DNA of 6,332 nt from the IMG/VR virus record IMGVR_UViG_2681813186_000009, one strand, 5' to 3'. This document shows positions 1 through 5,056 of this stretch, in pieces. Within the stretch, counting starts at the first letter, position 1; the number at the start of each line of letters is the position of its first letter. The notes under the pieces are model-generated. The model worked only from the letters and a program-made list of their open reading frames with translations. It did not search any database and was not told the origin of the DNA. The position numbers were made by a program, and so were the translations under genes. The DNA is from a virus. Taxonomy: Duplodnaviria; Heunggongvirae; Uroviricota; Caudoviricetes.

Positions 1-3000
1 GCACCCGCTGGTCAATCAGCTGCACAAGACTGCCTGCCGCCTCCGGCCCTATCTGGCCATTAGTCCCGTCATTCTGAATGGCGATATGGTAGACCGGGGA
101 ATACACCAGACCCGCACTGCCGTTCATACTACCCACCGCGCGCACACCCAGCGAGCCATCCGCCGCCCGCGTCAGAGGCATAATGGCTTCAGGTCCGGCC
201 TCCCCCATCAGCCCGGCCCCTTTTGCAAAGGCAAAGTACGTGGGCGTATCCACAATACTGTTGCTGTACGCACTCAGGTTTGCCGAGGTATACACGCCGC
301 CTTTTGCATTGGCCACCGCCCCGCCCAGCCAGTCACCAATGCTGCCGAGAAATCCTCCCGCACCGGACATACCGTTTGCCGCCGTCTTAATTCCGTTGAC
401 AATCGCGGCATTCATAAGAACTTTTGATATTTCCTGCAGCACTGATGAGGCCCAGCTGCGCCATTCCACTTTATTCCCGTTCAGCATCTCCGTGATGTTA
501 TTCACCATCCCTGAGATACCCTCCGTCGCAAGCTGTGCTGCCTGTGAGGCGTAATCGGACGCATTATCCACCCAGTTACTGAACCCCTCCTGCAGCCCTT
601 TCTGCCAGTCCGCACGCTGCACATCCGATTCGGCATAAAAGGCTGCCTGGTCCTTAAGGCGTTCGCTCAGATACTGCGCGTTCTGTGCCCGTGCCTGTCT
701 GTAAAAATCCTCACTGATATCCCCGGTCTGATACTGAGACTGAAGGTCCGCATCCTTCTGGCGGAAGCTGTCGCGGATCTGCTGCAACTCCCGCATGCGT
801 TCCCTGGCTCGTTCTCCCTGCCCGTATCCCAGCAGTTCGGCTTCATTTGATGCACGCGCAGCCACATTATCATTCTTCAGGGTCTCTTCCCGGGATCGCA
901 ACTGTTCCCGGATTTTTTGCTGGTCAATCAGGGCCGCGTTACGCAGCAGTTCCTGCTTCTGCATCTCCGTCAGGGTTTTCAGTTCGCCCTGCGCAGTCTG
1001 GTACTTCAGCTTCGCCAGCTCTGTATTCTGACCCGCCAGTGCCAGTTGCTCTTTCTGCTGCTTCAGTAGCCGGGAAAAACTGTCTTCCGCTTTTTCCGTC
1101 TCTGATTTTCCACCCCGGGATTTAGGTTTGTTCGCCTCGTTATTACGCCAGGCTTCCAGAGCATTACTGATATAACGCTGTCTCGCCTCCTGATACGAAT
1201 CCCCCACAAAACCAAGGTCATCCGCCGCATACCCCAGCCGGGCACGCTCTTTTTCTTCCCCTTTCAGTCTGGACAGGGCCAGCTCACGCTCTGTTTTTGT
1301 CAGGGCACTCTGCTGTTTATCATCCAGAGTGGCCTGTGGCAGCCGTAACGGCACATTCACCAGTCCCTGCCGCTGCTGAAGCAGTTCATTACCCAGCCCC
1401 AGCAGACGGTTGAATTCCGTATGCTGACCGTTCATAACCAGCATGGACTGGTACACCTTATTCTGCTCTGCCGCCTGCTGACGAATTAACGCCACACGAC
1501 GGTCTTCCAGCCCGGCAAGCACATCCTGAATGGACTGCGCTTTTTCCTGCATCTGTGCCAGACGGGACTGCTCAACGGCAAGCTGCTCTGTTGCCTGAGC
1601 AAGCCCTTCCGTTACGGTCTTCACCGAGGTCAGATGGTTTATCATGAATCCGTCACCGGTCGTCCAGCCCGGGTTCGCCAGAACATACTGATATCCTGCG
1701 ATTTTTTCCTGCAGGGATTTCACCCGACTGGCCTGTTCATCAATCAGCCGGTTCTGCTCTGTCAGCGCCGCCCGTGTTCGTCCTTCATTATCTGAGGCTT
1801 CAGGCAGAGACATTGACGGCGTTTTATGCGCGATTTCATCTATCGTCAGTGCATACTGGCGCGCAGACTCCCTGGCCTGCTCCTGATTCTGGTACAGCGT
1901 GTACCATGCTGCAGCCCCCAGCATCACCAGTCCGGGTACGCCACCAACCAGCCCCAGCGCACCGCTCATCAGACGTGAGCCCACCGCCGTTGTACTGTTC
2001 AGCGCATTCTGGGCGGCGCTTCTGGCAGCAATATTTCTGTTCAGGCGTTCCTGTGTGGCCGCCAGACGGGCCTCTGCTGCAATCTGCATCTCCGTCCCGC
2101 GGGCTGCCGCCACGGCCTGCTGAGCACGGTACACGGCTGCTCTTGCCCGCGCCGTGGCAATCTGCGTTCCCCTGAACTGTGCTTCCGCCAGTGCAACTTC
2201 ATTACGTGCAGCCGTCACAAGTCCTGCCGTGGCAGACATCGCTCCGGAGGCCATATTGCCAAAGTACCGGGCAACCCCGACGGCAACCAGTGCCCCCACG
2301 GCTGTTGCCACATTATCAATCTGTCCGGCAACACCGTTCAGCACGCCGGAGAGCGTTTTCGTCACCCCGCTGGCCTCATTCGCACCGCCCACCCAGGCCA
2401 TAAAGGCGTTTTCCACCTTCGTGATACTACTGGAAACCGTTTCCGGCATGGCCGCATATTCATCACGTAATATCCCCAGCTGGCTGATTAACGCGGGGAC
2501 CACTTTATCCGCTGTCAGTTTTCCGTCATCCGCCATTGCCTTCAGATCTTTACGGGCCACGCCCATACCCGCAGCCAGTGCACGTACGATCCGGTCACCA
2601 CTTTCATTGACCGAATTAAACTCCTCACCACGCAATACACCCTGCGCCAGCGCCTGACTGAACTGGGTGATCACCGAGCCCGCCTCTGCCGTACTGGCAC
2701 CGGAGATTTTCAGCCCTGTCGAAATGGCCTCCGTCACCTTCAGCACATCATCAGCACTGTAACCATATTCACGCATTGAGGCGGCTGAGCGGGCAAACAG
2801 GGCCGCATTATCCGAAAATGCGGTGCCTGTCCGCTGGCTGATATCCATCAGCACTTTCTGTGATGACGAAAATTCATCAGATGACTGCGACGCCTGTTTC
2901 AGACGGGCATTCACGGAACTCCACTCATCCGCCAGTGAAATCAGGTGTCCGGTGGCAAAGGCACCGGCAAACGCACCGGTCATTCCGACAGCCGAAGCGC

Positions 3001-3193
3001 GGATTTCCGTCAACTGGCTGTGCAGCTCAGCCAGAGCCCGGCGCTGCTCCCTGGCTGCCGCAGCAGCCTGACGTCCGCCATTCTGCAGGGTCCGGTAATA
3101 TTCACTGCCCATACGGGACGCCCGCTGGATCTCCGACTGGAATGACTGTGAATTTGCCGAAATTTTGATAATCAGTTCACGTAACGTCGCCAT
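1..3193 (-). CDS. Tail tape measure protein (lambda-family), N-terminus and ~1064 codons present; C-terminal end truncated by the window start
   Basis: ATG at 3193-3191 preceded in frame by TGA, with SD-like GGAGAAAGG (revcomp of 3197-3205). I hand-checked the frame at ~3190-3120, ~2300-2230, ~2000-1950, ~1020-975 and 110-2 and found no stops; the ORF track probably omits it because it lacks a stop inside the window. N-terminus MATLRELIIKISANSQSFQSEIQRASR. Long Ala/Gln/Arg/Glu-rich coiled-coil-like stretches, two Gly/Ala/Val-rich hydrophobic segments (~2215-2310 and ~1886-1960), and a C-terminal region ending ...HIAIQNDGTNGQIGPEAAGSLVQLIDQRV that resembles, from memory, the C-terminus of lambda gpH. 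Position directly downstream of the chaperone pair fits. Confidence 0.85.
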   Translation of the reverse strand, partial: MATLRELIIKISANSQSFQSEIQRASRMGSEYYRTLQNGGRQAAAAAREQRRALAELHSQLTEIRASAVGMTGAFAGAFATGHLISLADEWSSVNARLKQASQSSDEFSSSQKVLMDISQRTGTAFSDNAALFARSAASMREYGYSADDVLKVTEAISTGLKISGASTAEAGSVITQFSQALAQGVLRGEEFNSVNESGDRIVRALAAGMGVARKDLKAMADDGKLTADKVVPALISQLGILRDEYAAMPETVSSSITKVENAFMAWVGGANEASGVTKTLSGVLNGVAGQIDNVATAVGALVAVGVARYFGNMASGAMSATAGLVTAARNEVALAEAQFRGTQIATARARAAVYRAQQAVAAARGTEMQIAAEARLAATQERLNRNIAARSAAQNALNSTTAVGSRLMSGALGLVGGVPGLVMLGAAAWYTLYQNQEQARESARQYALTIDEIAHKTPSMSLPEASDNEGRTRAALTEQNRLIDEQASRVKSLQEKIAGYQYVLANPGWTTGDGFMINHLTSVKTVTEGLAQATEQLAVEQSRLAQMQEKAQSIQDVLAGLEDRRVALIRQQAAEQNKVYQSMLVMNGQHTEFNRLLGLGNELLQQRQGLVNVPLRLPQATLDDKQQSALTKTERELALSRLKGEEKERARLGYAADDLGFVGDSYQEARQRYISNALEAWRNNEANKPKSRGGKSETEKAEDSFSRLLKQQKEQLALAGQNTELAKLKYQTAQGELKTLTEMQKQELLRNAALIDQQKIREQLRSREETLKNDNVAARASNEAELLGYGQGERARERMRELQQIRDSFRQKDADLQSQYQTGDISEDFYRQARAQNAQYLSERLKDQAAFYAESDVQRADWQKGLQEGFSNWVDNASDYASQAAQLATEGISGMVNNITEMLNGNKVEWRSWASSVLQEISKVLMNAAIVNGIKTAANGMSGAGGFLGSIGDWLGGAVANAKGGVYTSANLSAYSNSIVDTPTYFAFAKGAGLMGEAGPEAIMPLTRAADGSLGVRAVGSMNGSAGLVYSPVYHIAIQNDGTNGQIGPEAAGSLVQLIDQRV

Positions 3194-3209
3194 TCACCTT
3201 TCTCCGGGC

Positions 3210-3235
3210 AAAAAAAACCTGCCACAGCAGGTTTT
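3210..3235 (-). terminator. Intrinsic-terminator-like hairpin between chaperone stop and tape measure start
   Basis: Minus-strand sequence AAAACCTGC-TGTG-GCAGGTTTT gives a 9-bp stem with 4-nt loop, followed by a run of 8 T (revcomp of the A run at 3210-3217). It lies in the 51-nt gap between the TAA at 3245-3247 and the tape measure SD. An A-tract upstream and T-tract downstream make it symmetric on both strands. Confidence 0.5.
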
Positions 3236-3244
3236 CATCATTAT

Positions 3245-3924
3245 TTATGACATTGCTGCAAGGCTCAGCGCGTCTTCCAGCGCCGCAAACGGATCCACCT
3301 CCGGCTTATCCTCATCCTCGCCCCAGCAGAGCATGGCGTCCTTCAGTGCAACATTCATCCCCTGTGCCCCGAAAACCGCTTTCACGATCTGTGCATTACG
3401 GATATCCCCGCGCTCATCACCCAGCGGGGATACCCTGTCGAACTCCATCCACATCATCGCCTCGCTCGCACTCAGGCTGTGCCGCAGTTCGGATAAGGTG
3501 CGCCCCAGACGGAGCGCAAGTCGCATCAGAAAGCGAATTTCCGGGCGGGCTACTTTTTTCTGGCCGACTCTGCATCAGCGATCAGTTCCAGTGCCTGACG
3601 CAGCAACCGGGCATGTACCGGACCATAGACGGCCAGCACCTGCTCACGGTCGTCCGGAGTGAACACCCGTTGCAGGTCAGTATCACACAGGACATCGCAG
3701 AACAGCGTCACATCCGCTTCCAGGTTACGGCGGGTTTTCGCCACCACCGACAGGGTATCGTCATCCTCTCCATCACCATTGAGCACTTCCTGCCACAGAT
3801 ACCAGGCCTCTGCCGAAGGCTCCCGCAGCACCACGCTGACATTTCTCCATTCCGGCACCTTCACCGTTTTATGACGGAACCCCGACAGTCTGGCCAGCGC
3901 CAGTGTTTTCAGATCTTTTGCCAT
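3245..3924 (-). CDS. Predicted -1 frameshift fusion product of the tail assembly chaperone (G-T analogue), about 226 aa
   Basis: The -1 frame is open from upstream of the slippery site (...KKVARPEIRFLMRLALRLGRTLSELRHSLSASEAMMWMEFDRVSPLGDERGD...) to TAA at 3247-3245. The ATG at 3526 has no recognisable SD upstream. The downstream segment resembles the lambdoid minor tail protein T family as I recall it. Chaperone followed by a -1 frame extension, then tape measure, is the conserved arrangement. Confidence 0.65.
3550..3924 (-). CDS. Tail assembly chaperone (functional analogue of lambda gpG), 124 aa
   Basis: ATG at 3924-3922, 5 nt after the major tail TAA; stop TAG at 3552-3550. Small acidic protein (MAKDLKTLALARLSGF...DGEDDDTL...ADAESARKK) located between the major tail and tape measure genes, the conserved chaperone position. 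Ends directly on a slippery heptamer. Confidence 0.7.
   Translation of the reverse strand: MAKDLKTLALARLSGFRHKTVKVPEWRNVSVVLREPSAEAWYLWQEVLNGDGEDDDTLSVVAKTRRNLEADVTLFCDVLCDTDLQRVFTPDDREQVLAVYGPVHARLLRQALELIADAESARKK
3553..3559 (-). promoter_or_regulatory. Slippery heptanucleotide A_AAA_AAG for -1 programmed ribosomal frameshifting
   Basis: Minus strand reads GCC AGA AAA AAG TAG in the chaperone frame. The heptamer A AAA AAG (3559-3553) is the X_XXY_YYZ type also used by E. coli dnaX and sits immediately before the 0-frame stop. The -1 frame continues AAA AAA GTA GCC CGC CCG... Confidence 0.65.
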
Positions 3925-3929
3925 AAGCC

Positions 3930-4646
3930 TTATCCGCCCGCACCATTAACCGTTACTGTACACGCATCAGAGGTAATGCTCTGCGGCTGTTCTGCAGAAT
4001 CCGTTACCTCGCAGGTATAAGCCCCCTTATCACCTGACTGCGTATTGGCTTTACTGAAAGTGTCAGTAGTCTGTCCCTCTACCGGCTGACCATCCTTCTT
4101 CCAGGCGTGTTTATAAGGCGGCGTTCCCCCGTTGACACTGACTGACATTGTCAGCAGCGCACCGGTATTCACGGTAAGTGTCTTCTCCAGATTTTTCACA
4201 AACGCCAGCGGTACCACATAGGACACCGGTTTACCCTTCAGGCGAAGTGAAAACGTTGCAGCCACCACGCCGTTGGTACCGGATGACCAGGTGTGCTGAC
4301 GCACTTCCGCCAGGAACTTAAAGCCCTTACCGGACGGAAACTGCACCTTAAACGCATACACCGTGTCATTGTCATAGGCATCACGCAGGGCGTTCTGGGC
4401 CTGATTCAGATAAAAATTACCCGACATGGAAATCTCGGACGACGCCCCCAGACCGTTGATGTTCTCCTGCTCTGTGGAGCAGAGCGTGGTCACATCAATA
4501 TCCTGTTTCTGACCGGCGGTGAACTGGACTTCCTTGATGGTGCAGTCCAGGCGCAGATATTCCGCCTTATCCATAGTTTCAGCAGTCGCCGGGGCAGATG
4601 AAATCATCACCTGCGTCAGCTGTGAGCGTTCATACAAAGCAGACAT
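3930..4646 (-). CDS. Major tail (tube) protein with C-terminal Ig-like domain, 238 aa
   Basis: ATG at 4646-4644 preceded by a perfect AGGAGG (revcomp of 4651-4656) with 4-nt spacer; stop TAA at 3932-3930. The track's longer GTG-initiated version (to 4715) is rejected. C-terminal ~90 aa (…SVSVNGGTPPYKHAWKKDGQPVEGQTTDTFSKANTQSGDKGAYTCEVTD…CTVTVNG) has an Ig (I-set-like) signature, as known for phage major tail proteins. Position upstream of the chaperone pair fits. Confidence 0.85.
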   Translation of the reverse strand: MSALYERSQLTQVMISSAPATAETMDKAEYLRLDCTIKEVQFTAGQKQDIDVTTLCSTEQENINGLGASSEISMSGNFYLNQAQNALRDAYDNDTVYAFKVQFPSGKGFKFLAEVRQHTWSSGTNGVVAATFSLRLKGKPVSYVVPLAFVKNLEKTLTVNTGALLTMSVSVNGGTPPYKHAWKKDGQPVEGQTTDTFSKANTQSGDKGAYTCEVTDSAEQPQSITSDACTVTVNGAGG

Positions 4647-4661: not shown

Positions 4662-4684
4662 TAAAAAACCCGCACGCGGCGGGG
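4662..4684 (-). terminator. Intrinsic-terminator-like GC-rich hairpin plus U-tract upstream of the major tail gene
   Basis: Minus-strand sequence CCCCGCCGCGTGCGGG-TTTTTT-A-TT: 5-bp GC stem (CCCGC/GCGGG, revcomp of plus 4669-4673 and 4679-4683), 5-nt loop, then T6. It lies in the 65-nt gap between the TGA at 4714-4712 and the major tail SD. A longer outer stem AAAACCC/GGGTTTT is an alternative fold. Confidence 0.45.
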
Positions 4685-4711
4685 TATGGGTTTTGTAGAA
4701 AAAAGAAAAAG

Positions 4712-5056
4712 TCACACCGTGACCTGAAACTCCAGGGTTGCACGGTAACAGCGGTTTTCCGGAATATAGTCCTGCATTTCACTGACGGATCCCGGGGCCA
4801 GCAGCATTATGGCTTCACGGGCGTCCTGACGTATCTGACGCGCCTGCGTCACAGTCCCGGCATAAACGTCTATCTGCACCGACACTGAGGACTCCGCCTG
4901 CCCGCCCATCACGTCCGCCGACACCGATGAAATCAGGCTGAAAACCACCCACGGAAGCGCCACCGACGGCCTGCCATCCAGCAGGGGGACCACATACGGG
5001 TACACCTGCCCGCCGGCAAGATGCGCCAGATGAGGATACAAATCCGCCTCCGTCAT
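4712..5056 (-). CDS. Tail completion / tail terminator-like protein (DUF3168-like, functional analogue of lambda gpU), 114 aa
   Basis: ATG at 5056-5054 overlaps the upstream stop as ATGA; SD-like GAGGT about 9 nt upstream; stop TGA 4714-4712. Sequence (…YPYVVPLLDGRPSVALPWVVFSLIS…VQIDVYAG…) fits my recollection of the DUF3168 tail-completion family. It is the last gene before the major tail gene. Confidence 0.6.
   Translation of the reverse strand: MTEADLYPHLAHLAGGQVYPYVVPLLDGRPSVALPWVVFSLISSVSADVMGGQAESSVSVQIDVYAGTVTQARQIRQDAREAIMLLAPGSVSEMQDYIPENRCYRATLEFQVTV

Follow-up and report, generated by a model that had tools for sequence, protein, structure and literature searches.

We have found that the hairpin and adjoining T-run between the tail assembly chaperone genes and the tape measure gene in a stretch of Caudoviricetes DNA (6,332 nt, hereafter the window) form a real and conserved element of the intrinsic-terminator type, as comparison with homologous sequences confirms. 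We describe the anatomy of the element, its position, its conservation in the face of stem turnover, purifying selection on it in a lineage whose slot is empty, and a polymorphism in which moron genes are present or absent at the same junction. We think it reasonably probable, if well short of assured, that the element is a genuine Rho-independent terminator that would stop polymerase lacking Q, insulate the tape measure and distal tail genes, and be read through by Q-modified polymerase.

Results

The window carries an HK97-type tail module of EHEC prophages

Judged by sequence identity, the window is an HK97-type tail module from EHEC lambdoid prophages (BP-4795 and Stx1a/Stx2c phages). It is 99.6-100% identical to BP-4795, to Stx phages and to E. 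coli chromosomes, the 100% match being one E. coli chromosomal locus, and the near-identical phages comprise BP-4795, Stx1a-, Stx2a- and Stx2c-converting phages and the 'PPompW' prophages. Among 5426 complete E. coli genomes, 1245 have the 1-kb region around the element, some of them in as many as seven places. All genes of the window lie on the minus strand, in the order head-tail connector, head closure, HK97-gp10-like, tail completion, major tail, chaperone G, T segment and tape measure (annotation from identical or near-identical loci). The genes that surround the element are as follows.

1-3193, minus strand: tape measure protein gene, ATG at 3193-3191, N-terminus MATLRELIIKI, running off the end of the window (from translation, and from the RefSeq name 'phage tail tape measure protein' in the 100% identical locus)
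3245-3526, minus strand: T segment of the tail assembly chaperone, read as a G-T fusion, stop codon TAA at 3247-3245 (Pfam Phage_tail_T PF06223, E = 4.6e-19)
3550-3924, minus strand: tail assembly chaperone G (from sequence and annotation)
3930-4646, minus strand: major tail subunit gene, ATG at 4646-4644 (from annotation)

A -1 slippery heptamer, A_AAA_AAG, is found at 3559-3553 (minus strand) at the end of G, and the T ORF (ATG 3526) is in the -1 frame, the same arrangement as in the G/GT genes of bacteriophage λ. The placement given in an earlier note on this DNA, within the late operon, after the G/GT chaperone pair and directly 5' of the Shine-Dalgarno sequence of the tape measure gene, proved correct. 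We note that databases list the T segment of the window as a separate 93-aa protein, and that antisense ORFs of 165 and 257 aa run along the plus strand (3165-4020) across the G/T genes and the hairpin; these look like by-products of coding-strand codon bias, and no annotation supports them as genes. We also note that the prophage of E. coli OkiPb01713 (our locus L001, 1188-3772), whose junction matches that of the window at 100%, has a portal gene annotated as frameshifted, a pseudogene, so this prophage may be defective.

A short G+C stem and a T8 run lie within a compact spacer

Positions 3194-3244 are the whole 51-nt intergenic spacer, from the T stop codon to the ATG of the tape measure gene. 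On the minus (coding) strand the spacer reads AUAAUGAU-G-AAAA-CCUGC-UGUG-GCAGG-UUUUUUUU-GCCC-GGAG-AAAGGUGA-AUG, and its parts, all taken from the sequence, are listed below.

3218-3236, minus strand: whole hairpin element (also from folding energies)
3231-3227, 3226-3223 and 3222-3218, minus strand: hairpin core of the putative terminator, made of 5' arm CCTGC, loop TGTG and 3' arm GCAGG
3236 and 3235-3232, minus strand: G and A4, an optional A:U/G:U extension of the stem
3217-3210, minus strand: T8 (the U-tract), abutting the 3' side of the stem
3205-3202, minus strand: tape measure Shine-Dalgarno sequence GGAG, 8 nt from the ATG

The hairpin begins 8 nt after the T stop codon, 16 nt lie between the end of the T8 run and the tape measure ATG, and GCCC separates the run from the Shine-Dalgarno sequence 4 nt downstream; the leader of the tape measure gene, CGCCCGGAGAAAGGTGA, is kept in relatives. 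The sequence features by which intrinsic terminators are recognised are present: the site is noncoding and 3' of a stop codon, the stem (CCUGC/GCAGG, with tetraloop UGUG) consists of four G:C pairs and one U:A pair, and T8 directly follows it on the coding strand, the opposite strand having T4 only. The stem is nevertheless short for an intrinsic terminator. Computed as the earlier note had proposed, the folding energy of the core is -6.3 kcal/mol and that of the extended hairpin of 9-10 bp is -12.1 kcal/mol (z = -3.7), with equally good folds in 1 of 200 shuffles; folding of the 76-nt context is unremarkable (z = -1.19). Because the core is only 5 bp long, at -6.3 kcal/mol, the efficiency of the element may be modest.

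The note had described a 9-bp stem with a tetraloop followed by T8. The tetraloop and the T8 run stand, and the 9 bp can be recovered as the 5-bp G+C core plus four A:U pairs (10 bp with the G-U pair), but the long stem and the full T8 cannot be had together. The A-tract pairs with the first four T's, so that the RNA could form either a 5-bp stem followed by eight U's or a 9-10-bp stem followed by three or four, and the description had counted four T's twice.

The coding strand of the window has no T8 run other than that of the element, and hairpins followed by at least six T's occur on that strand at just two sites, in the only two sizeable intergenic spacers. A lenient consensus terminator scan returned five sites in the window against 4.6 in shuffles and missed the minus-strand element, because its greedy stem consumes the T's. 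The built-in promoter and terminator scan is insensitive to terminators that can be extended by A:U pairs, and also misses the promoter of the HK97 gene 15 moron; the consensus scan of the coding strand of the window, which likewise fails on the HK97 gene 15 moron, gave no promoter-like site. There was no match to Rfam in the window.

The form of the element is conserved although its sequence has turned over

We collected loci with the tape measure start motif MATLRELIIK from IMG/VR, by protein search and DNA pattern, and from GenBank phages, and removed redundancy at the level of identical 400 nt upstream, which left 133 junctions; in 130 of them a T segment can be recognised upstream. Of the 133, 126 have a hairpin directly followed by a T-run that stops 11-19 nt short of the ATG, and 122 pass a strict criterion (at least six T's and a stem energy of -5.5 kcal/mol or lower), so the retention of a hairpin by homologous phages, which the note had suggested checking, is the rule. 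Random 75-nt windows of the same loci pass the strict criterion in 1.2% of cases and the lenient one in 5.9%; the excess at the junction is the decisive evidence that the element is more than a chance hairpin. The reading of it as a terminator-type element on the coding strand is supported. The window has each of the features that define the HK97-type junction terminator, its T-run ending 16 nt before an ATG that begins MATLRELIIK, with Phage_tail_T upstream.

The family contains approximately 48 distinct hairpin sequences, nearly all with fully complementary stems and with short and varied loops, and its T-run is strictly kept at T6-T9. Sequence comparison thus indicates that the form is conserved whereas the sequence has turned over. 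RNAalifold applied to a MAFFT alignment of 18 junctions found no structure, because arms of unequal length and sequence are misregistered in the alignment, and base pairing was therefore scored sequence by sequence (in Python) in place of alignment folding. A search of genome contigs with the T protein gave no confirmed relative.

Several related tail modules do without the element. The genes T and H of λ overlap by 8 nt (in line with the note, λ has no terminator at the equivalent position) and its U/V gap is 7 nt; HK022 has a gap of 19 nt; and the element is also absent from the λ-type tail module of Sakai Sp15, from the Burkholderia phages KS9 and phi1026b, and from two members of the family itself, with gaps of 12 and 22 nt. 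The terminator is therefore not indispensable for building a tail. It is present in Serratia phage OS31, and by its distribution is characteristic of enterobacterial HK97-type (Hendrixvirinae-like) tail modules. In Klebsiella phage Kp4882-3 (L004, 1485-1800) unrelated DNA breaks the T/tape-measure junction, with no tape measure start nearby, which may be an insertion or rearrangement at this site.

The junction is a moron slot that is empty in the window

The junctions that bear the terminator fall into two groups of equal size. In 62 of them, as in the window, the slot is empty and the T stop codon lies 33-51 nt from the tape measure ATG; another 62 (64 if those lacking the terminator are counted) have an insert between the T stop codon and the terminator, of approximately 290-1700 nt. 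Inserts are 30-46% G+C and carry a same-strand ORF of 62-200 aa. Clustering by BLAST divides this cargo into at least 20 families, including HK97 gp15 (Pfam YebO), a zinc-ribbon membrane protein and many lipoproteins with a lipobox. The terminator is the last element before the Shine-Dalgarno sequence in 62 of the 64 junctions with cargo. In three of the 62 the gap is only 118-125 nt: one of these (L054) was rejected as a short moron insert, its gap being an artefact of a frameshift in T, and the other two (L145 and L202, from IMG/VR) have a 125-nt insert without an ORF between the T stop codon and the terminator. This AT-rich insert lacks ORFs of 25 aa or more and has a promoter-like TTGTTT...TGCATAAT with the terminator approximately 50 nt downstream of it; the insert could represent a moron of the small-RNA type in the same slot.

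The closest moron-bearing relatives of the window (L055/L064 and L077/L081, from IMG/VR) have T proteins 92-99% identical to that of the window and the same CCTGC...GCAGG stem and leader, with other loops, and carry a gene for a 137-aa lipoprotein between T and the hairpin. The short sequence that trails the stop codon of this lipoprotein gene is also found in the window. The lipoprotein has the lipobox LTGC and a weak match to a PEGA domain, and its gene lies within the 540 nt upstream of the tape measure ATG. Evi, which is empty, and L187, which has cargo, form a second pair with a common terminator and leader. Neither cargo family nor leader class by itself accounts for the identity of the hairpin, and a few identical hairpins are common to different cargos or to cargo and empty slots.

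Morons, elements of lambdoid phages (Juhala et al. 2000), have been defined as a gene with its own promoter and terminator, inserted between two phage genes (PMC3594210). Of these parts the window has the 3' terminator; the 51-nt spacer contains no cargo ORF, and the 8 nt upstream of the hairpin contain no promoter-like site of their own in our insensitive scan. By comparison with its relatives, the junction is a classical moron site, and the slot of the window is empty, containing the terminator and the Shine-Dalgarno sequence only.

The stem is under purifying selection in one empty-slot lineage

The mEp390-type lineage (23 unique sequences) has no cargo at this site, and its T proteins are down to 66% identical. 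Nucleotide diversity in this lineage is 0.022 over the 12 stem positions, 0.18 in the loop and 0.27 at the third codon positions of T and of the tape measure gene on either side. Conservation as high as that of the stem was never reached in 100,000 random draws of 12 third positions (P < 1e-5). The stem is therefore approximately 12-fold less variable than synonymous sites, which argues for purifying selection on it in the absence of a moron rather than for a decaying relic. We note that such cargo-free selection could equally reflect a function during lytic growth. Terminators of empty slots are also as strong as those of cargo-bearing ones.

The same comparison is impossible in the EHEC lineage of the window because its flanks are almost invariant. 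Two alleles occur there, allele A, that of the window (AAAACCTGC-TGTG-GCAGGTTTT+T4), and allele B (AACCGC-TGAG-GCGGTT+T5). They differ at approximately 20% of positions, including a compensated indel of a T:A base pair, and pairing is perfect in both. The sole stem substitution seen, a C-to-T change within allele B, leaves a U-G pair.

The element is one of several along a late operon downstream of Q

Lambdoid Q proteins load onto polymerase at pR' and render it resistant to downstream terminators. The window itself stops short of Q, but in BP-4795, which is 99.6% identical to it at the site, Q (18.4 kb) and the junction (37.7 kb, approximately 19 kb downstream) share a strand, and stx1 and the lysis, terminase, head and tail genes as far as J/lom are all co-directional. 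Since only 16 nt lie between the U-tract and the ATG, an operon of this type has no room for a promoter there, and the phage depends on read-through for its tails. On the sense strand of BP-4795, intergenic hairpins followed by at least six T's mark the tR' region directly after Q, the gap between TerL and the head gene, the 5' side of the major tail gene, the T/tape-measure junction, the J/lom gap and the region beyond lom. The terminator-like sites at TerL/head, at J/lom and after lom lie at 12872, 30136 and 30813 (plus strand) of our BP-4795 locus (L211), and an antisense terminator is found at 26388 (minus strand) in its I/J gap.

The site upstream of the major tail gene is represented in the window by two features, both from sequence.

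4663-4683, minus strand: second terminator-like element, CCCGC-CGCGT-GCGGG followed by T6, in the spacer between the tail-completion and major tail genes
4699-4725, minus strand: further hairpin with a T-rich run, in tandem with the element at 4663-4683

The spacer between the tail-completion stop codon (4714-4712) and the major tail ATG is 65 nt long. This sister (U/V) site is found in nearly all relatives and never with cargo, and a sister element that is conserved and free of cargo supports a general role of such elements in the architecture of the operon.

Discussion

The T/tape-measure element is an ordinary feature of an essentially known kind, and it calls for no new mechanism. In the GenBank records of HK97 (NC_002167, 8398-8422) and HK75 (NC_016160, 8398-8422) a '(putative) terminator' is annotated at exactly this position, after moron gene 15, and a second one in the gap that separates the tail terminator gene from the major tail gene; the element of the window is therefore the counterpart, in an empty slot, of a feature already annotated. 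As in the window, the terminators of HK97 and HK75 are the last element before the Shine-Dalgarno sequence of a tape measure gene beginning MATLRELIIK, 3' of G/GT, and they are similarly built, with a G+C stem, a short loop and T7-8. They differ in the hairpin itself, which has no sequence homology to that of the window (ACCCGC-TATCAA-GCGGGT as opposed to CCTGC-TGTG-GCAGG), in leader class, the T-run lying 12 nt rather than 16 nt from the ATG, and in what separates T from the terminator, namely a promoter and the YebO-like gp15 gene, where the window has 8 nt only. Among the lambdoid relatives of the window each of the 20 or more cargo families at the slot ends in such a terminator, whereas the window has the terminator with neither cargo nor promoter. 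What goes slightly beyond the published work that we consulted is the near-universal presence of the element in this family of modules, the selection on it in an empty-slot lineage, and the breadth of the cargo.

We favour a role as an insulating terminator. Polymerase that lacks Q, whether coming from moron promoters, from spurious promoters in the silent prophage or by read-in from outside, would make the CCUGC/GCAGG hairpin and release at the U8 tract, and the tape measure and distal tail genes would then be transcribed solely by polymerase that had been antiterminated by Q at pR'. During lytic growth such Q-modified polymerase would pass this terminator and its sisters at TerL/head, U/V and J/lom. 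Because Q makes polymerase resistant to terminators, the element would mainly halt polymerase that has skipped pR'/qut; in relatives with cargo it would bound the transcripts of moron promoters, and in a lysogen it would block spurious or read-in transcription. Termination itself, its override by Q and insulation as the benefit under selection are the steps that we infer here. Against this model is the empty slot, in which our insensitive scan identified no upstream promoter to insulate from. Intrinsic terminators inside a long operon that depends on an antiterminator have precedents in λ (tR' and Q), in Tn916 and in conjugative elements. The λ terminator tR' stands at the entry to its operon, while the site in the window is approximately 19 kb from pR'. 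An insulator terminator of Tn916 is read through by processive antitermination, as PMC11658703 describes, and antitermination through terminators in conjugative elements is described in PMC8191782.

The element might instead tune the lytic message at the RNA level, much as the note had proposed in terms of tail-protein stoichiometry, through partial termination of Q-modified polymerase or through processing and a block to 3' exonucleases, so that message for the major tail protein and G/GT would exceed that for the tape measure and distal tail proteins; we regard this as possible but rather doubtful. It would account for purifying selection on hairpin and U-tract in moron-free lineages with no obvious lysogenic promoter, for retention in more than 90% of relatives, and for the way in which the element and its U/V sister bracket exactly the major tail-G-T block. 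Simple attenuation, however, is contradicted by the same sister, which lies directly 5' of the gene for the most abundant tail protein, and an insulating or moron-ending function is favoured by the half of the relatives in which a moron inserted after T has its 3' end at this site. Q-type antitermination is, moreover, established to suppress intrinsic terminators, the late genes of BP-4795 depend on read-through for want of promoter room before the ATG, and λ, HK022 and the λ-type Sp15 build the same kind of tail without the element. Intercistronic stem-loops such as the malE-malF REP sequence and the hairpins of the puf operon stabilise the mRNA upstream of them. Like the element of the window, they are stable hairpins that separate two cistrons of one operon, one highly expressed and the other weakly, but they need no U-tract; a pure 3' stabiliser would have no use for the strictly kept T6-T9 run, which points to termination.

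Alternatively, the element could be a functionless relic, the terminator left behind by a moron whose promoter and ORF were deleted too recently for it to have been lost. The close relatives with the same stem and leader that carry the lipoprotein moron, and the short post-stop sequence that the window has kept, are consistent with such a history, as is the classical definition, which counts the terminator as part of the moron; the near-identical flanks of the EHEC lineage allow no test of selection there. We nevertheless consider a relic unlikely, given that the empty-slot stem of the mEp390 lineage is approximately 12-fold less variable than synonymous sites while its T proteins are as little as 66% identical, that empty-slot terminators equal cargo-bearing ones in strength, that both EHEC alleles are perfectly paired despite approximately 20% local divergence, and that the U/V terminator is conserved without any moron. 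A different role in RNA, as the 3' module of an Hfq-binding sRNA from the end of the T gene or with the U-tract as a translation enhancer or insulator of the tape measure start, seems to us very improbable. EHEC prophages indeed encode many Hfq-bound sRNAs with an intrinsic terminator at their 3' end (PMC4104026), the slot of two relatives (L145 and L202) holds the promoter-like 125-nt insert without an ORF, and the U-run is close to the tape measure start (4 nt from the Shine-Dalgarno sequence in the window, 11-19 nt from the ATG across relatives), although the compact spacer explains the constancy of this distance. An sRNA at this site is made less plausible by the want of an Rfam match, by the spacer, with just 8 nt and no promoter-like site between the T stop codon and the hairpin, and by the orphan Hfq peaks for Sakai, 0 of 63 of which appear at the T/tape-measure junction (by position within the prophage rather than by direct mapping).

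The classical picture, in which the terminator belongs to the moron, does not predict the cargo-free maintenance seen in one lineage. As a less likely possibility, the terminators upstream of the major tail and tape measure genes may be built-in, selected parts of HK97-type late operons rather than moron baggage, either tuning the lytic tail message despite Q or serving as pre-installed 'safe harbours'. If the latter is true, cassettes of promoter and gene could be gained and swapped 5' of a resident terminator with tail expression undisturbed, and this would explain why at least 20 cargo families are found at one junction. The element marks a well-defined slot in the tail operon of EHEC and enterobacterial prophages that are very common; the slot is present in approximately a quarter of complete E. 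coli genomes, and it is here that genes affecting the host, such as those for superinfection exclusion proteins and envelope lipoproteins, turn over. Recognising the terminator aids operon annotation and predicts where morons are located, and the site offers a simple test case for how terminators within an operon under antitermination keep the structural genes of a prophage silent.

Lastly, two sets of small RNAs map to other parts of these prophages. HnrS (EcOnc10-12) was recently described as a 66-nt multicopy sRNA 'within the late genes' of EHEC prophages; we considered whether it might be the element described here and rejected this, as the Sakai coordinates of HnrS place it between the Rz and terminase genes on the opposite strand. 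The Hfq peaks EcOnc22-24 are located in the I/J gap, and the antisense EcOnc22 of Sakai Sp15 occupies the same gap as the antisense terminator of BP-4795.
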